A stretch of DNA of 41,081 nt from Bordetella parapertussis (GCA_945885335.1 CAMCYY010000002.1:1-41081); one strand, 5' to 3'; positions 80-13,132 are shown, numbered from the stretch's first letter. Made by a program: numbers and translations. Notes: generated by a model from the letters alone, not told the origin.

Positions 80-3000
80 TAAACCAGGCCCGCCCCCGCT
101 TCAAGCCCCAGGGCGTGAAGTTCAGCCCCGCACAACTCAATGCCCTGCCCGGCCTTACCGTGCACGACCTGATGCTCTTGCCCATTGAGCGCGTTCGCAC
201 ACTTATGGACTCGCTGCACCTGCCGGCACCCATGGACGAAGCCACCGACCTCCTGCTCACCGAAGTCCGCGCCCGTCTCAAATACCTGTGCGACGTCGGC
301 CTCGCCTATCTAACGCTGGACCGCCAGTCGCGCACGCTCTCCGGGGGCGAGGTGCAGCGCATCAACCTCACGACGGCACTGGGCACTTCACTGGTGAACA
401 CCCTGTTCGTGCTGGATGAGCCCTCCATCGGCCTGCATCCGCGCGACATGGGCCGCGTCATCGGCGTCATGCATCGGCTGCGCGATGCCGGCAACTCATT
501 GGTGGTGGTCGAACACGACCCGCAGATCATGTTCGAAGCCGACCGCATCCTCGACATGGGCCCCGGCCCCGGCGAGCGCGGCGGCGAAATGGTGTTCTAC
601 GGCACGCCCGACGAACTGCGCGCAGCAAAGACGCTGACCGGCGACTACCTGTCCGGGCGCAAGAAGGCCGGCCTGCCTGCCCCCCTTGTCAAAGGCGGCC
701 GACTAGCCGAAGGCCAGCGGGGGGATTTCAACAAAGACCAAATCCCCCCCGGCCCCCCTTTGACAAGGGGGGGGCAACTCGAGCTGCTCGGCGCCACCGC
801 AAATAACCTGAAGAACATCGACCTCCGGATTCCGCTCGGCAAGCTGGTATGCCTCACGGGTGTTTCCGGTTCGGGGAAATCCACAATCGTGCAGGACGTG
901 CTGTACGCGGCACTGCAAAAGGCCAAGGGCAAGCCCACCGAAACACCGGGCGCGCACCGCGAGTTGCGCGGCCACGAGCTGGTGGGCGATGTGGTGATGG
1001 TCGATCAGACGCCGATCGGCCGCACCACGCGCTCCAACCCCGCCAGCTACGTCGGCGCATGGGATGCGATCCGCAACCTGTTCGCCCGCTCGCCCGTGGC
1101 GAAGGAACGCCAGTACACGCCGGGCACCTTCAGCTTCAACTCCGGCAACGGCCGCTGCCCCACCTGCGGCGGCAATGGCTTCGAGCACATCGAGATGCAG
1201 TTCCTGTCTGATGTGTATCTCAGATGCCCCGACTGCGACGGCAAACGCTTCCGCGCCGAAGTGCTGGAAGTGAAACTGCGCGGCCTGTCGATTGCCGACG
1301 TGCTGGATATGACCGTCTCCGAAGCACTGAACTTCTTCTCGCTGCCTGGCGAGGAGGAGGTCGCGCGCGTGCTGAAGCCGCTGGCCGATGTGGGCCTCGA
1401 ATATCTCAAGGTGGGCCAGCCGGTCCCGACGCTGTCCGGGGGTGAGGCTCAGCGATTGAAACTCGCAGGGCATCTGGCTGAGACGGCGTCTCACCCCCTT
1501 GCCAAAGGGGGCCGACGTGGCGGTTCTAACCCCCTTGTCAAAGGGGGCGGACGCGACGCAGTCGCGCCGGGGGTTTTATCAGGCGCAGCAGAAATCCCCC
1601 CCGGCCCCCCTTTGACAAGGGGGGGGAGAGGCAAATTGTTTTTGTTCGATGAGCCTACGACTGGTTTGCATTTCGACGACGTGGCCAAGCTGCTGCGCGC
1701 CTTTGGGCAACTGCTGGATCGCGGCAACTCGCTGGTGGTGATCGAACACAACCTCGACGTCATCGCCGCCTCAGACTGGATCATTGACCTCGGCCCGGAA
1801 GGCGGCGATGGCGGTGGCGAGATCGTGGCCCAGGGTACGCCAGACGACATTCGTTTCGCCAAGGACTCGCACACTGGGCGCGCGCTGCGTGAGTACGACA
1901 CTGCCCTTTCGGAAGCCGTGAAGTCCGGAAAGTCGATGATCACAATCCCGTTGGAAACACCCTCCAATCAACGCGCTTTCTACGAAAATATTAGTATTCA
2001 CAACGCCCGTGAACACAACCTCAAGAACATCAGCGTCGAAATCCCGCGCCAGAAATTCACCGTCATCACCGGCGTATCGGGCTCGGGCAAATCAACACTG
2101 GCCTTTGACATCCTGTTCAATGAAGGCCAGCGCCGTTACCTTGAATCGCTGAACGCCTACGCCCGGCAGTTCGTGCAGTCCGGCGCGCGGCCCGACGTGG
2201 ATGCCATCTTCGGCATCCCGCCCACGGTGGCGATCGAGCAGCGCACCAGCCGCGGCGGTGGCAAGTCCACGGTGGCCACGCTGACCGAGGTGTATCACTT
2301 CCTGCGTCTGCTTTACGTGAAGCTCGGCACGCAGTACTGCCCCGACTGCAATGTGCCCATCGAGCCGCAGAGCTTTGATGCCATCGCGGCGCGCATCCTC
2401 AAGGATTACCGCGGCCAACGGATCGGCCTGCTGGCGCCGCTGGTGATCAACCGCAAGGGCTTCTATACCGACCTCGCGAAGTGGGCCAAGGGCAAGGGCT
2501 ATGACTTCCTCCGGGTAGATGGCGAATTCCTGCCCACCACGAAATGGCCGCGCCTCGACCGCTTCAAGGAACACAGCATCGAGCTGCCGGTGCTGGACAT
2601 CACCGTCACGCCGCAGAATGAAAAGGCCCTGCGCGCGGCGCTAGAGACGGCCCTCGAACACGGCAAGGGTGTGCTGCATGTGCTGGGCGGTGTGGACAAG
2701 CTGGCGCATGAATTCGCGCTGCAAGGCGCCGCCGGCAAAACCGACCGCGTCGAACTCGACCTGCCGGTGCAGGTGTTCTCGACCAAGCGCGCCTGCCCCT
2801 CCTGCGCCAAGAGCTTTGCCGAACTCGACCCGCGTCTCTTCTCGTTCAACTCCAAGCACGGCTGGTGCCCCGGCTGTTTCGGCACCGGCTTGAAGCTCAC
2901 TGGCTTTGACTGGGACGAGGAGCGCGAAAAGACCGGCGACCAGGAACATGTGCTCGACTCCTGGCTGGAATGGCTGGAGATCAAGGAGCCCTGCCCGAGC

Positions 3001-4824
3001 TGCAACGGCCTCAGGCTGAACCGTGAAGCACTGGCGGTGCGCTGGAAGGATCGCTCCATTGCCTCGCTCACGGCGCTGGCCATTGAGAAGGTGGAAAAGA
3101 TTTTCAGCGGCATGGATCTGGAAGGCCGCGAAGCAGCGATTGCGCGCGACAGCGTGGCCGAACTCAAGTCGCGCCTCGGCTTCCTTGAGCAGGTGGGCCT
3201 CGGCTACCTGTCGCTGGACCGTTCCGCGCCCACACTGTCGGGCGGCGAGGCGCAGCGCATCCGGCTCGCGGCGCAACTGGGCTCGAACCTGCGTGGCGTG
3301 TGCTACATCCTGGATGAACCGACGATTGGCCTGCATCCGCGCGACAACACCGTCCTGCTCGACACGCTGGAGGCGCTGGAGAAAAAGGGCAACACGCTGG
3401 TGGTGGTGGAACACGACGAGGACACCATCCGCCGCGCCGCACACGTGATTGACCTCGGCCCCGGCGCGGGCAAGGTGGGCGGCTACGTGATCGGCAGCGG
3501 CACCGCCGCCGAACTCATGGCGAACCCGGAGTCCATCACCGGCCGCTTCCTGAAAACCCCGCTGCTGCATCCGCTGCATCCGCCGCGCCCCGTCACGATG
3601 AAAGGCAGCGACAAAACGCCGGCCATCACCATCGAAGGCGCGAACCTGCACAACCTGCACGATGTCACCGTGCGCGTGCCACTGGGCCGACTCACCGTTT
3701 TCACCGGTGTATCGGGTTCGGGCAAATCGACGATCGCGCGCGACGTGTTGCACGCGAACCTGGCGCGCCTGGTAGTCGCCGCGCGTGACCGCAAGAGCGA
3801 ACCGCCGATCACCGGCTGCACAGCCGTCACTGGCTGGGAGCCCGTGGGTCGCGTGCTGGAAGTGGACCAGACGCCGATCGGCAAGACGCCGCGCTCCTGC
3901 CCCGCCACCTACGTGGGCTTCTACGACGCCATCCGCAAGCTCTACGCCGAAGCAAACGAATCGCGCATGCGCGGCTGGACCGCGAGCCGGTTTTCGTTCA
4001 ACACCAAGGGCGGGCGCTGCGAGGAATGCGAAGGCCAGGGCATCAAGAAAATCGAGATGTCCTTCCTGCCCGACGTGCGCGTGCTGTGCGACGCCTGCCG
4101 CGGCGCACGCTTCAACCCGGAAACCCTGTCGGTGCTGTGGAAAGGCAAATCCATCGGCGACGTGCTGGCCATGAGCGTAGACGAAGCCGTCGAATTCTTC
4201 TCCGCCCACACCGCCATCCACCACGCCCTCCGATTGCTGCAGGACGTCGGCCTCGGCTACCTCACCCTGGGCCAGCAAAGCCCAACGTTATCCGGCGGCG
4301 AAGCCCAGCGCATCAAACTCGTCACCGAACTCTCCAAGGTCCGCAGCTTGGACATCCCTCCCCCGCGCACAGACAATCCTCCCCCGCAAGCGGGGGAGGC
4401 CGACTCGCGCAGCGAGCGGGTGGGGGCAAAACTCACCAAAAAACAACAAGCCCAAGCCGCCGCACTAACCCGCGCCCTAGCCCAACCCGCCTCCCGCCAA
4501 TACTCCAAAATCGGCCACAACACCCTCTACGTCCTGGACGAACCCACCGTCGGCCTCCACATGGCCGACGTCGAAAAACTCATCCGCGTCCTGCACCGCC
4601 TGGTCGATGCCGGCAACACCGTGGTCGTCATCGAACACAACCTCGACGTCATGGCCGACGCCGACTGGATCATCGACATGGGGCCGGAGGGTGGGGACGC
4701 GGGTGGAAGCGTGGCGGCGGAGGGGTCGCCGACGCAACTGATCGCGGCACCGAAGCAATCGCATACGAGTCGGGTGCTGGCTGAGTTTCTGCAGGAACGA
4801 AGCGTAAGCGCTCCTCCGGTTTAA
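1..4824 (+). CDS. uvrA: UvrA-family excinuclease ABC subunit A, covalent tandem of two UvrA modules (5' end upstream of window)
   Basis: Frame 1 is open from nt 1; the ORF track calls 115..4824. Module 1 (partial): [11 protein letters not shown] / [12 protein letters not shown], then [30 protein letters not shown] complete second module starts near nt 1980 ([37 protein letters not shown]) with CxxC zinc modules, [11 protein letters not shown] / [12 protein letters not shown], a second [20 protein letters not shown] and LDEPTVGLH. Colinear with E. coli UvrA. Confidence 0.88.
680..774. repeat. Palindromic ~95-bp repeat element, copy B, in frame inside uvrA
   Basis: Terminal inverted repeats CCCCCTTGTCAAAGG ... 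CCTTTGACAAGGGGG. Internal inverted repeat GGGGGGATTT...AAATCCCCCC. Translated as [31 protein letters not shown]. Confidence 0.9.
1494..1626. repeat. Composite repeat, copy C: solo terminal hairpin (1494..1511) plus a full element (1530..1626), in frame inside uvrA
   Basis: CCCCCTTGCCAAAGGGGG, then CCCCCTTGTCAAAGGGGG ... AAATCCCCCCCGGCCCCCCTTTGACAAGGGGGGGG. Same termini as copy B with a different core. Translated as [46 protein letters not shown]. Confidence 0.85.
4345..4518. repeat. Diverged repeat-derived in-frame insertion in uvrA module 2 (contains hairpin 4378..4399)
   Basis: About 58 codons lie between signature [15 protein letters not shown] and Walker B LYVLDEP; E. coli UvrA has about 5 residues there. 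Contains the perfect palindrome CCTCCCCCGC-AA-GCGGGGGAGG and the core ggccgactcgc, shared with copies A/B (ggccgactagc). Confidence 0.55.
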
Positions 4825-9369: not shown

Positions 9370-10520
<1,151 letters not shown>

Positions 10521-10654: not shown

Positions 10655-11377
10655 CTAGTACCGCGTCGTCAACAACACCAGCCAGTCCGGCATCACATCC
10701 AGCAATGCCCCTTCAAGCTGCTTGTCGAGACCGCTGAGGACAAACAGGCCGATCGCGACGAGCATCACGCCCATGACCGGCATGGCAATGCGACTCATGC
10801 GCGCCAGCCGCTGGCGCCGCGCGGCGATGGCCTGCCGCGAGCCGTAGGCGAGTGCCAGCATGGGCAGCGTGGCGCCGATGCCAAAAAACAGCATGATGGC
10901 CGCAGCCCGCGGCAGGCCGCCCTGCGCCGCGAGCGCGACGGCGGAAGCCAGGGTGGGCCCCGAGCAGGGACTCCAGATCGCGCCCAGCAACGCGCCGGTG
11001 GCAAACTGCCCGCCCAGTCCACCCCCGCCGCTCGGCGACACGCGATCAATTAAGGCGTGCAGCGGCTCCATCCAGCGGCTGCCAGCTGCGGCGAGGCGGT
11101 TTTTCAGGGGGCTGCACAAAATGATGACGCCCATGAGCAGCATCAGCACCGCCCCGGCCCGGCGCACCGAATCGGCATCGATATTGAGGCTGGCGCCGGC
11201 GCCATAGACCAGCAATCCGAACACGGTAAAGCCGGCCACCATGCCGCCGACCAGCGCCAGCGGTCCCAGGCGATGCTGCTGCAATGCCCCGAACAGCACG
11301 ATGGGCAGCACCGGCAGCACGCAAGGGTTCACCACGGTCAGGGCGCCGGCAAGCAGACTGAGAAGAAGGGCGCTCAA
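10655..11377 (-). CDS. ccdA: CcdA/DsbD-family transmembrane thiol-disulfide electron transporter
   Basis: Polytopic membrane protein with two conserved Cys motifs (VVNPCVLPVLP and IWSPCSGPTL). TTG start. Confidence 0.88.
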   Translation of the reverse strand: MSALLLSLLAGALTVVNPCVLPVLPIVLFGALQQHRLGPLALVGGMVAGFTVFGLLVYGAGASLNIDADSVRRAGAVLMLLMGVIILCSPLKNRLAAAGSRWMEPLHALIDRVSPSGGGGLGGQFATGALLGAIWSPCSGPTLASAVALAAQGGLPRAAAIMLFFGIGATLPMLALAYGSRQAIAARRQRLARMSRIAMPVMGVMLVAIGLFVLSGLDKQLEGALLDVMPDWLVLLTTRY

Positions 11378-11406
11378 GGTTCAACGCTCACGAAATGGAT
11401 AACTCA

Positions 11407-11441
11407 CAAAAAAACAGGCGCACGGAAATCCGTGCGCCTGT
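11407..11441 (-). terminator. Rho-independent terminator between the Trx-like ORF and ccdA
   Basis: Minus strand: ACAGGCGCACGG-ATTT-CCGTGCGCCTGT (12-bp perfect stem) followed by TTTTTTT. Confidence 0.8.
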
Positions 11442-11466
11442 CCGAGACGATAGCGATGGCGCCGGA

Positions 11467-11874
11467 TCACAGCCCCTTGTCGAGCAGGGCCTGGATCTCC
11501 TTGCCGTCGGTCACCCCGTAGACGCGGCCGACCTCCTTGTTGCCGCGGAACATGATGAGCGTGCTGCGATCATTCGCGCCAAAGCGCTTCATGACATCCT
11601 TCTGCGTATCGTAATCGACGCGGAACTGCGTGATTGCACCGTACTTGGCCTGCTTAGCAAGAGAGTCGACGACCGCCGACTGCGCGCGGCAGGTGGTTCA
11701 CCATCGGGCATAGACGTCGATCAGGACGGGTTTGCCCGCAGCCTGCGCCGTCTGAAATGCCTTTTCATCCCAGGGCTGCGGCGCGGCAAACACAAGCGCC
11801 GCCGGCAAGGCAAGCGCGGCGGCTGCGAAGAAGGTGGCAAACCGGGATACAAAACTACGGCGTGGCATGTTCAT
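11467..11874 (-). CDS. Periplasmic thioredoxin-like protein with in-frame TGA at the first Cys of CxxC (candidate selenoprotein; alternatively a pseudogene)
   Basis: ATG at 11874 with RBS AGGAAG. Twin-arginine-like signal MNMPRRSFVSRF...ALVFA. ...KPVLIDVYARW-TGA(11700..11698)-TTCRAQ... then a Trx-fold C-terminus (STLIMFRGNKEVGRVYG). The frame is otherwise open to the TGA stop at 11467. Absent from the ORF track because both halves are short. Confidence 0.6.
11664..11681 (-). promoter_or_regulatory. SECIS-like hairpin downstream of the in-frame UGA
   Basis: mRNA 5'-A GUCGGC GGUC GUCGAC U-3': 6-7 bp stem (one G.U pair) with a GGUC tetraloop, starting 16 nt after the UGA. The loop sequence is the same as the apical loop of the E. 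coli fdhF SECIS. Confidence 0.45.
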
Positions 11875-12098
11875 GTGATCTTCCTTTCAGGAGGGGGTGG
11901 TTCAGTCTATGACAGGCCCGTGGCCGAAACAATCACCCGATCATGAAAGAAAAAAATAAACCAGGCAGGGAATAAACCGGCCCGGCATCACACGCCGGGC
12001 CGAGCAGGGCGGCGCTTCGCCCTGGAAGAGTTGTCGCGCGAAAATGCTACATTGGCCCCCTGAATAACGCATTCACCCCGCAAGGATCCACCCACCGC

Positions 12099-12452
12099 AT
12101 GAACACCACCTCCGACCTGAAACAACGCATCCTGGACCTGCTGCAGGCCAATGAAGAAGTGTCTTTCGCGCAGCTCGCGGGCATTCCCGGCTTTGCCGGC
12201 GACCGGGACCTGGTCGCTCCGGAGTTGGCCAACCTCGTGCTCTGGCGCGGCCTGTCGCCCGAGGCGATGGATGTGCTGGAGGAACTGGAAGACGACGAGG
12301 TCATCCGCTTTGCAAGAACGGATGCGAAACGTTACGCCGAGGACGGCTTCACGCCGACGCTGCCGGTGGCACTGAGGGTCTCAAAGTACCGGACGCCGTC
12401 CTGGCTGCCGGTGCTGGTGAGTTTGTGGAATTTGCCAGAAACAAAGAACTGA
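12099..12452 (+). CDS. Hypothetical acidic protein (117 aa), no recognisable domain
   Basis: Intact ORF with coding-like composition, divergent from the Trx-like gene. No motif recognised. Confidence 0.5.
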   Translation: MNTTSDLKQRILDLLQANEEVSFAQLAGIPGFAGDRDLVAPELANLVLWRGLSPEAMDVLEELEDDEVIRFARTDAKRYAEDGFTPTLPVALRVSKYRTPSWLPVLVSLWNLPETKN

Positions 12453-12488: not shown

Positions 12489-12506
12489 GTAGCACTATTG
12501 TGCTAC
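12489..12506. promoter_or_regulatory. Perfect inverted repeat GTAGCAC-TATT-GTGCTAC overlapping a TACAAT -10-like hexamer; likely RHH antitoxin operator
   Basis: Located 37 nt upstream of the parD-like ATG. TACAAT is at 12504..12509. Confidence 0.55.
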
Positions 12507-12542
12507 AATCGACCCAGCTTCTACACATCTTCGGGGTCGATC

Positions 12543-12827
12543 ATGTCCACAACCACCATCCGGTTGCCGCAGGAAATCAAGGATCGGGTCGCGCGGGCAG
12601 CAGAGCGCGCCGGCACTACGGCTCACGGCTTTATCCTCGCCGCCATCACTGAAAAGACGGCGCAGGAGGAGCACCGGGCGGAGTTCCAAGACCAGGCCGA
12701 GCAGCGATACACGGAAATTGTCGCTTCGGGAAAGACCGTTCCGTGGAAGGACATGCGTCGCTATCTTGAGAGCCGCGTCGCTGGCCGGAAACCGGCCCGC
12801 CCCAAGCCCCACAACTCCGCGCGCTGA
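12543..12827 (+). CDS. parD: Ribbon-helix-helix (CopG/ParD-like) antitoxin
   Basis: TIRLPQEIKDRVARAAERAGTTAHGFILAAI is a canonical RHH N-terminus. It sits immediately upstream of a ParE-family toxin. Confidence 0.8.
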   Translation: MSTTTIRLPQEIKDRVARAAERAGTTAHGFILAAITEKTAQEEHRAEFQDQAEQRYTEIVASGKTVPWKDMRRYLESRVAGRKPARPKPHNSAR

Positions 12828-12829
12828 GC

Positions 12830-13132
12830 ATGTCCCGCATTGAGCTCGCGCCCGGGATCGGCGGGGATTTCGAGCGCATCCTCGACCATCTGCTGCAGCA
12901 CGAGGTTGAGAACGCCGCCCCCCGCATCGGCGACATCATCAAGGCCATTGACGTTCTGGAGCACAACCCGCTGATCGGCCGACCTGTCCGGGGAGATCTT
13001 AGGGAACTGGTAATCGGGCGGCGGACGCGCGGCTACGTCGCGCTTTACCGATATGTGGCGGAACTGGACACAGTGTTCGTACTGGCCATCCGCGGACAAA
13101 AAGAAGCAGGCTATTCCGAAGGGCAGTCATGA
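12830..13132 (+). CDS. parE: ParE/RelE-superfamily toxin
   Basis: AAPRIGDIIKAIDVLEHNPLIGRP...RELVIGRRTRGYVALYRYVAELDTVFVLAIRGQKE matches the ParE consensus. Confidence 0.82.
   Translation: MSRIELAPGIGGDFERILDHLLQHEVENAAPRIGDIIKAIDVLEHNPLIGRPVRGDLRELVIGRRTRGYVALYRYVAELDTVFVLAIRGQKEAGYSEGQS

Follow-up and report, generated by a model that had tools for sequence, protein, structure and literature searches.

A UGA codon at the catalytic position of a thioredoxin-like gene beside ccdA: a candidate exported selenoprotein of uncultured freshwater Burkholderiales

Does a UGA codon that occupies the position of the catalytic cysteine in a thioredoxin-like gene specify selenocysteine (Sec), or is it the trace of a nonsense mutation that has left a pseudogene behind? 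This question is raised by a locus in a 41,081-nucleotide stretch of a metagenome assembly (CAMCYY010000002.1; the whole stretch is referred to here as the window). On its minus strand, a frame running from 11874 to 11467 comprises 135 codons plus a stop and contains a sole internal TGA at 11700..11698. We call this gene trx(U). Its translation reads MNMPRRSFVSRFATFFAAAALALPAALVFAAPQPWDEKAFQTAQAAGKPVLIDVYARW up to the internal TGA and TTCRAQSAVVDSLAKQAKYGAITQFRVDYDTQKDVMKRFGANDRSTLIMFRGNKEVGRVYGVTDGKEIQALLDKGL from there to the terminal stop, and the sequence context around the internal TGA is ...LIDVYARW(TGA)TTCRAQ.... An earlier note, made from the DNA alone, had described the interrupted frame, a good ribosome-binding site ahead of it, and the fact that only an antisense ORF is called in this region. 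Translation of the frame and inspection of the locus bear out these three points, and the following features can be delineated:

11467..11874, minus strand: coding sequence of the candidate exported thioredoxin-like selenoprotein, 135 codons, proposed Sec59, own stop TGA at 11469..11467
11880..11886, minus strand: Shine-Dalgarno-like sequence AAGGAAG, placed 5 nt ahead of the start codon (ATG at 11874; read from the sequence)
11785..11874, minus strand: putative signal peptide of about 30 residues, MNMPRRSFVSRFATFFAAAALALPAALVFA/AP, with an RRxF motif (read from the sequence; the slash marks the presumed cleavage site)
11698..11700, minus strand: in-frame UGA, proposed Sec codon, where W-C-x-x-C has its nucleophilic Cys (column of 13 variants)
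11689..11691, minus strand: TGC codon for the resolving Cys of U-T-T-C (codon table)
11395..11946, plus strand: antisense ORF of 183 amino acids called opposite trx(U)

When Cys is substituted at the TGA, the deduced protein matches the Pfam Thioredoxin family (PF00085; E = 6.5e-14, 52.2 bits versus a cut-off of 23.5) and also Redoxin (33.5 bits versus a cut-off of 26.6). The mature protein aligns end-to-end with the solved structure deposited as PDB 5ZF2 (E = 6e-20, residues 3-97 of the mature protein); the WCPVC sequence of 5ZF2 falls on W-U-TTC of trx(U), with the CxxC-position motif where the active-site helix begins. The trx(U) product is thus a member of the thioredoxin-fold oxidoreductases. 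These matches also substantiate two further readings of the earlier note, namely that the TGA replaces the nucleophilic Cys of WCxxC and that the frame runs on cleanly through the C-terminus of the thioredoxin fold. Within NCBIfam, the equivalog models for canonical thioredoxins scored below their cut-offs (TIGR01068, 59.5 versus 96.8; TrxC, 39.1 versus 125; TrxA, 28.9 versus 138), as did those for DsbE, TlpA, and ResA (30.2 versus 359, 26 versus 230, and 18.2 versus 170, respectively), and no NCBIfam selenoprotein model claims trx(U), the best of them being seleno_TsoB with 29 bits versus a cut-off of 805. A blastn search of the locus against a plasmid collection yielded no match.

Since the window stems from a metagenome assembly, the TGA at 11698..11700 might be a sequencing or assembly error, a possibility that the earlier note had raised itself. 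Gene callers mis-call trx(U) as two ORFs of 58 and 41 amino acids on every contig examined (NCBI, JGI, ENA, Logan), the identical allele is present in one ENA and one Logan assembly, and an exact look-up of these fragments recovered near-identical variants on more than 40 contigs (JGI, ENA, Logan, and NCBI MAG sources). On these contigs, the 58-amino-acid fragment is always followed by the 41-amino-acid ORF and then, where the contig is long enough, by CcdA. Because the same codon recurs in independent assemblies produced by different assemblers from many samples, and in several variants, we exclude an error; its probability is negligible.

More distant relatives carry the TGA as well. Five diverged orthologues with 62-84% identity, from MAGs of freshwater Betaproteobacteria/Burkholderiales, all read W-TGA-x-T-C-[RK]-A-Q and are open to the same stop; the species-level scan covered one genome per species. 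A metagenome scan added one further TGA form (L029) with this same motif and returned mostly Cys forms, but it was partly biased since one of its two search patterns contained WC (TGY). A search with the N-terminal fragment, which is unbiased toward Cys versus TGA, was run in filter-only mode against 1.84 billion cluster representatives and retrieved five clusters, whose proteins are 52-61 residues long and stop precisely at the Trp. Four new lineages are among them, each with the TGA and, on contigs of sufficient length, an intact thioredoxin C-terminus after it. Taken together, the active-site column holds TGA in all 13 distinct variants of the clade, down to about 58% protein identity, and frame, internal TGA, and terminal stop are kept throughout. 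In the other homologues (up to 61% identity), this column is Cys, both in the 23 aligned homologues from protein databases and in the 52 distinct sequences of Cys-form loci. Among 5.8 billion protein clusters, no protein of full length, Cys forms included, exceeded 54% identity to trx(U). The earlier note had held that close orthologues with TGC or TGT throughout and no conserved hairpin would speak against a selenoprotein; the relatives were instead found to have both the TGA and the hairpin.

In a neighbour-joining tree, the TGA-containing forms are monophyletic (11 of 11 leaves under a common ancestor) and nested inside a large family of Cys-containing trx-ccdA pairs. This single clade amid Cys forms points to one putative switch from Cys to Sec in a Cys-containing ancestor that was afterwards retained. 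To judge from its sequences, the host clade is one of uncultured, Comamonadaceae-like freshwater Burkholderiales; the PBP1A protein of the host lineage shares about 66-67% identity with its counterparts in Polaromonas and Rhodoferax.

The main alternative offered in the earlier note was a one-base nonsense mutation, from TGC or TGT to TGA, in a gene for a Cys-containing thioredoxin whose downstream frame is now decaying. The split of the gene into ORFs of 58 and 41 amino acids by the gene callers is what a pseudogene would give, and the position of the locus amid mobile and toxin-antitoxin genes, with an IS110 element beside ccdA, would fit this explanation too. However, the TGA has been kept in 13 variants to about 58% identity and to dS values of up to about 1, and there is no Cys allele among the close relatives. 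Downstream of the TGA, the 76 codons of the diverged orthologues evolve with dN/dS ratios of 0.09-0.33 at dS values of 0.35-1.1, like the upstream part of the mature protein; this region contains no indels, no frameshift, and no extra stops, and it ends at the same terminal stop. The region downstream of the UGA is therefore under purifying selection and, on this comparative evidence, must be translated, which means that the UGA is read through. This selection analysis, together with a conserved hairpin that is specific to the TGA forms (see below), refutes the pseudogene, which we regard as very improbable.

Alternatively, the locus might encode two small proteins, an exported peptide of 58 residues that ends at the UGA and an independently initiated C-terminal fragment further downstream, and the 41-amino-acid ORF that the gene callers predict does begin at an internal Met (MKRF...). 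From the UGA to this first internal Met, however, the 36 codons (TTCRAQSAVVDSLAKQ...DTQKDV) are as conserved as the rest and include the resolving Cys; the UGA is followed by neither a start codon nor a ribosome-binding site, and both parts form one thioredoxin domain that aligns end-to-end on 5ZF2. Conservation of the downstream codons under purifying selection excludes this explanation along with the pseudogene, and we consider two separate proteins extremely improbable.

An element that could direct Sec insertion lies immediately downstream of the UGA:

11664..11681, minus strand: SECIS-like hairpin AGUCGGC-GGUC-GUCGACU, 7 bp, with the tetraloop GGUC at 11674..11671

This hairpin is present at 11681..11664, as the earlier note had reported; it begins 16 nt, and its loop 23 nt, after the UGA, and its stem is perfect and without a bulged U. 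The likeness to the GGUC loop of the Escherichia coli fdhF SECIS had been noted as well, with the reservation that the element sits about 5 nt further from the UGA and lacks the bulged U. This figure is exact, because the fdhF loop starts 18 nt and the window loop 23 nt after the UGA. The published bSECIS model comprises a loop of 3-9 nt with a G in its two leading positions, an upper stem of 4-16 bp, a UGA-to-loop distance of 16-37 nt, and a minimum free energy of -7.5 kcal/mol or lower (PMC13188914, Fig. 2). With an energy of -8.5 kcal/mol for the bare hairpin (-20 kcal/mol for the 63-nt region), the window hairpin falls within all four constraints of this model (PMC13188914).

The GGUC loop and the 23-nt spacing are retained in 12 of the 13 variants; in the thirteenth (L023), the hairpin is shifted by 4 nt and has a GUG loop. 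For most variants, the energy of the isolated upper hairpin lies only between -6.9 and -9.1 kcal/mol, and in L116 it is about -3.5 kcal/mol if no bulge is drawn. In the alignment of the 13 sequences, 87.9% of the cells are paired, versus 14-66% for slid controls, and neither the observed pairing nor the covariation score was reached by any of 500 column shuffles. Compensatory changes affect pair 30-39 (G-C in nine sequences, C-G in three), pair 28-41 (U-A in nine, G-C in two), and pair 31-38 (G-U in eight, A-U in five). These changes go along with amino acid replacements (S-A...V-D to A-T...V-A), so that conservation of the protein alone does not account for the pairing. As they are concentrated in one subclade (L024, L116, and L119), they may represent one or two evolutionary events only. 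The conservation of the hairpin with compensatory changes, which the earlier note had named as a check on its proposal, was thus found in this alignment. Among seven in-register sequences, the hairpin codons are invariant at five of five synonymous sites as compared with 28 of 62 elsewhere (p = 0.025). In the nine variants tabulated, there is also no variation, even at synonymous sites, in the TGC that encodes the resolving Cys or in the ACC and GCG codons next to it.

The Cys forms served as a control. A hairpin with an energy of -7.5 kcal/mol or lower in the permitted window was detected in just one of 52 distinct Cys-form homologues; 21 of the 52 had no qualifying hairpin, and the GGUC hairpin occurred in none of them. 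Rfam recognised no SECIS family in either a gathering-threshold scan of the window or an E-value scan of 11600..11760. The sole match was a chance hit to AsdA (E = 2.4).

With the TGA and the hairpin conserved, the downstream codons under purifying selection, and the hairpin specific to the TGA forms, we prefer a selenoprotein over a pseudogene with high confidence. On this comparative evidence, the internal UGA is very probably decoded as Sec, which makes trx(U) a strong candidate for an exported selenocysteine thioredoxin encoded beside CcdA.

Purifying selection demonstrates read-through and leaves the inserted residue unspecified, a distinction that gives some room to recoding without Sec: a near-cognate or suppressor tRNA (for Trp, Cys, or Arg) might read the UGA, possibly stimulated by the hairpin, in a lineage that lacks SelB. 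In line with such an explanation, neither selA, selB, or selD nor tRNA-Sec nor a second selenoprotein gene was found in the window and the related loci (about 0.55 Mb; 555 kb in all), and a tRNA scan that covered the window and 11 loci detected no tRNA-Sec. When the E. coli SelA, SelB, SelD, and FdhF proteins were used as tblastn queries against these 555 kb, a single match was obtained, located in L023. It proved to be an FdhF-like molybdopterin oxidoreductase of the Cys type that has no TGA at the Sec position, and we rejected it as a marker; being of the Cys type, it says nothing on the Sec trait. Against recoding without Sec stands the position of the UGA, which coincides with the catalytic nucleophile, a site at which no residue other than Cys or Sec would keep the chemistry intact; if Cys were the residue, a one-base change to UGC or UGU would be the simpler solution, and it is never seen in the clade. 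Moreover, the hairpin agrees with the bSECIS model of the SelB type and has its GGUC loop in common with fdhF, and 13 of 23 genes use TGA as an efficient stop. Should SelB-dependent decoding fail, an unusual Sec-independent recoding would be needed, because read-through itself is established; we judge this to be unlikely.

TGA is in fact the commonest true stop in the window, where it ends 13 of the 23 confident genes, trx(U) among them. This rules out a genome-wide reassignment of UGA, which we had considered as a further candidate. Since TGA is a normal stop in the window, the recoding must be local.

The N-terminus of the trx(U) product (MNMPRRSFVS...ALVFA/AP) resembles a signal peptide. 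The twin-arginine-like character ascribed to it in the earlier note is reflected in an RRxF motif, which can be read in the sequence and is kept in most Sec-form orthologues; one Sec-form lineage (P0187) and many Cys homologues are without the RR pair. The consensus of Tat signals is S/T-R-R-x-F-L-K. No match to the Pfam TAT_signal family was obtained even at E <= 5 among seven proteins scanned. The conserved RRxF motif is the sole basis for the label 'Tat-type', and the predicted export could proceed via either the Sec or the Tat route.

The genes and elements that surround trx(U) are the following:

10655..11377, minus strand: CcdA (DsbD_2 family), 240 amino acids, six-helix membrane thiol-disulfide electron transporter (Pfam and Cys motifs)
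11412..11443, minus strand: strong terminator-like hairpin of 14 pairs with a U-run, within the 89-nt gap between the trx(U) stop and the ccdA start
12099..12452, plus strand: divergently transcribed gene for a 117-amino-acid protein, syntenic with trx(U) in close strains only

That the next gene encodes CcdA, as proposed at the outset, was corroborated by matches to DsbD_2 (E = 1.9e-14, 54.5 bits versus a cut-off of 24.9) and DsbD_TM (E = 9e-9, 35.4 bits versus 27.1); the protein is intact and possesses both membrane Cys motifs, NPCVLP and SPCSGP. In nearly all members of the family that we fetched, be they Cys or Sec forms, ccdA is found 6-140 nt downstream of trx; two Sec-form lineages (L021 and L024) are without an adjacent ccdA. 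Because of this almost invariable arrangement, the trx-ccdA family is, as far as gene order can tell, a two-gene extracytoplasmic reductase module. The terminator-like hairpin between the two genes is also present in L003 and L020 and is absent in L022; it is a possible attenuator that might set the Trx:CcdA ratio. A third gene that might encode a substrate was not found on a family-wide scale, synteny beyond the pair being confined to the clade level, and no genes for cytochrome c maturation or sox functions were present nearby, with the exception of a CcmH/CycH-like TPR gene in L116. Eight of the Cys-form loci have a gene for an ECF sigma factor upstream. The trx(U) locus itself sits among mobile and toxin-antitoxin genes, and in this strain an IS110 element adjoins ccdA.

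From these data we propose the following scenario for the selenoprotein. The GGUC-loop hairpin 23 nt downstream of the UGA would act as a bSECIS element and recruit SelB together with Sec-tRNA(Sec), so that the UGA would be decoded as Sec rather than terminate translation. The signal peptide would carry the protein to the periplasm by the Sec or Tat route, and the exported product would be a thioredoxin-fold oxidoreductase of about 105 residues with Sec as the nucleophile in W-U-T-T-C. Its U-x-x-C centre would reduce disulfides or other oxidised groups in periplasmic target proteins, thereby becoming a selenenylsulfide, and CcdA would re-reduce this centre with electrons from cytoplasmic thioredoxin. 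We infer this electron path (from cytoplasmic thioredoxin to CcdA, to the exported U-x-x-C protein, and on to its targets) because CcdA proteins function in this manner in other systems. For the scenario in its entirety, namely that an aerobic-type, Comamonadaceae-like freshwater clade has a Sec-thioredoxin in its periplasm and recycles the selenenylsulfide of this protein through CcdA, we see evenly balanced chances.

Formate dehydrogenase is otherwise regarded as the main use of Sec in the host group, and we know of no CcdA/DsbD-type shuttle previously shown to service a selenoprotein. The literature was searched for selenoproteins linked to CcdA and for the use of Sec in Polaromonas, Rhodoferax, or Comamonadaceae, with no specific result. 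If the scenario holds true, trx(U) would provide the first instance of such a shuttle servicing a selenoprotein, and it would place a redox selenoprotein in this group. Selenium use would thereby be tied to an extracytoplasmic thiol-redox system (CcdA) in abundant uncultured Burkholderiales of lakes. A curated model would correct dozens of database records and mark these freshwater MAG lineages as users of Sec. What is currently understood about selenoproteins would not be altered by trx(U).

How does trx(U) relate to known systems? Early surveys of UxxC selenoproteins with a thioredoxin fold already comprised thioredoxin, glutaredoxin, Prx-like, DsbA-like, DsbG-like, and thiol-disulfide isomerase-like proteins (PMC1088965), and in a 2026 catalogue Trx (PF00085, UxxC) is listed as experimentally verified, along with several families of exported oxidoreductases (PMC13188914, Table 1). 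Predicted exported UxxC proteins in these collections include thiol:disulfide interchange proteins (PF13098), Redoxin (PF08534), thiol-disulfide isomerase-like/TlpA proteins (cd02966), and DsbA-like and DsbG-like proteins (PMC1088965, Table 3; PMC13188914, Table 1). The statement of the earlier note that UxxC redox selenoproteins with Cys homologues are known is consequently backed by both catalogues, and its view that a Tat-type, CcdA-linked representative would be unusual was overstated, since exported UxxC oxidoreductase selenoproteins have already been catalogued (PMC13188914; PMC1088965). By the domain-plus-motif criterion of the catalogue, the predicted trx(U) protein falls into the Trx/Redoxin UxxC group. 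Specific to it, when the catalogue entries are compared by description, are its trx-ccdA subfamily, the partnership with CcdA, the host group, and the lack of an NCBIfam selenoprotein model. With the catalogued exported UxxC families, it shares the thioredoxin fold, the UxxC/UGC redox centre, a predicted extracytoplasmic thiol-disulfide chemistry, the occurrence of Sec/Cys pairs, and a bSECIS-like element.

The Sec-containing thioredoxin of the Treponema denticola type resembles trx(U) in its PF00085 domain, in Sec taking the place of the N-terminal nucleophilic Cys, in a SECIS within the ORF after the UGA, and in widespread Cys homologues. Compared by description, trx(U) differs from it by a signal peptide, by CcdA as the likely partner instead of a cytoplasmic thioredoxin reductase, by the motif W-U-[TPSI]-T-C in place of the classical WCGPC type, and by its host, an aerobic-type freshwater member of the Burkholderiales. 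The fdhF SECIS of E. coli has the identical GGUC apical loop in a hairpin that likewise follows directly on the UGA and is part of the coding sequence. The loop of the predicted trx(U) element is, however, 23 rather than 18 nt away from the UGA, and its stem is without the bulged U; for the L116 orthologue, a fold that has a bulged U in its 5' arm can be drawn. With its fdhF-type GGUC loop and a spacing fixed at 23 nt, the hairpin offers a simple, testable element for the spacing rules of SelB outside the Enterobacteria.

Periplasmic reductases that depend on CcdA/DsbD proteins include ResA, CcmG/DsbE, TlpA, and SoxW with its partner SoxV. Like these, the trx(U) locus combines a membrane-bound CcdA-type electron shuttle with a dedicated extracytoplasmic thioredoxin-like acceptor; in contrast to them, the acceptor here would use Sec, and it is far below the cut-offs of the DsbE, TlpA, and ResA equivalogs. 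The direct family of trx(U) is represented by the Trxlp module of Edwardsiella piscicida (5ZF2/5ZPV; PMC6636751), with which it has in common W-C-x-x-C-[RK]-x-Q (with U for the first C in trx(U)), DxDTQK, and, as in nearly all members fetched, ccdA immediately downstream. In the literature, Trxlp is portrayed as a virulence effector that is translocated (PMC6636751), a role that nothing suggests for trx(U). Trxlp-type trx-ccdA pairs use Cys and are without the GGUC hairpin after the codon, whereas trx(U) would use Sec. The two would thus constitute a natural Cys/Sec pair, built on the same two-gene module with one clade switched, and could show what Sec buys a periplasmic reductase.

Between the thioredoxin-like gene trx(U), in which an in-frame TGA is the proposed Sec codon, and its downstream neighbor ccdA lies the first of two hairpins on the coding strand of trx(U):

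11412..11443 (-), GC-rich hairpin of 14 bp followed by a U-run, in the gap separating the stop of trx(U) from the start of ccdA
11977..12003 (-), second terminator-like hairpin of 12 pairs, upstream of trx(U) in the spacer that separates it from its divergent neighbor

The first hairpin looks like an intrinsic terminator placed inside an apparent two-gene trx(U)-ccdA operon; it is also present in a related strain (L003) and in L020, while the 29-nt trx(U)-ccdA gap of L022 is devoid of a terminator-like hairpin. No minus-strand gene has its end at the position of the second hairpin. A mechanical ORF list of the window gives as its longest entry at trx(U) an antisense reading frame. With the GC content of the window at 62.9%, this frame is most probably an artefact of high GC:

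11395..11946 (+), 183-aa ORF antisense to trx(U)

The surroundings of the gene pair vary among related strains, and a large ATPase gene is cut by the window start:

115..4824 (+), very large UvrA-like ABC ATPase (UvrA_DNA-bind, UvrA_inter, several P-loop regions), truncated
9453..10520 (+), IS110-family transposase (DEDD_Tnp_IS110 and Transposase_20), directly 3' of ccdA
12498..13132 (+), antitoxin and ParE-toxin pair, between the 117-aa gene divergent from trx(U) and xthA

The position 3' of ccdA is an insertion site that differs between strains: a Gp49/HTH toxin-antitoxin pair replaces the transposase in the related strains L003 and L011, and an ENA contig of the same strain as the window terminates within the IS110-family element. 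The antitoxin/ParE-toxin pair was found in L001 and L002, both representing the strain of the window, and is missing from L003 and L011; in these two, xthA is the next gene after the 117-aa gene.

Two Sec-form orthologues lack an adjoining ccdA. In L021 (1478..2000), trx(U) is followed by an IS91-like ORF, and in L024 (3810..5700) by unrelated predicted ORFs of 144 and 324 aa (both minus-strand) and a putative 440-aa membrane-protein ORF. In these two, the partner of trx(U) must lie elsewhere or be DsbD. In the Sec-form lineage of L114 and L115 (P0187) the signal peptide (MSSFLRCAQAAFVGF...) lacks twin arginines, which argues against Tat export being obligatory for the Sec-form clade.

Among the loci with Cys in place of the TGA, an ECF-type sigma-factor-like gene adjoins trx-ccdA in eight (L039, L040, L044, L046, L047, L081, L089, L093), upstream in seven and downstream in one. 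This arrangement hints that envelope stress might control the module in this Cys-form subgroup.

In the diverged Sec-form lineage L116/L117, CoxMLS-like molybdenum hydroxylase genes are found further upstream of the following gene:

L116 and L117, 4205..7116, TPR protein of 585 aa carrying a CcmH/CycH-like domain, next to trx(U)-ccdA on its upstream side

The counterpart of the truncated ATPase is about twice the size of canonical UvrA:

L011, 13322..19657, UvrA-like ABC ATPase of 2111 aa

The SECIS-like hairpin of the L116/L117 lineage can be drawn as CAG-U-CCAC GGUC GUGG-CUG; in this form it has a bulged U, as does that of E. coli fdhF.
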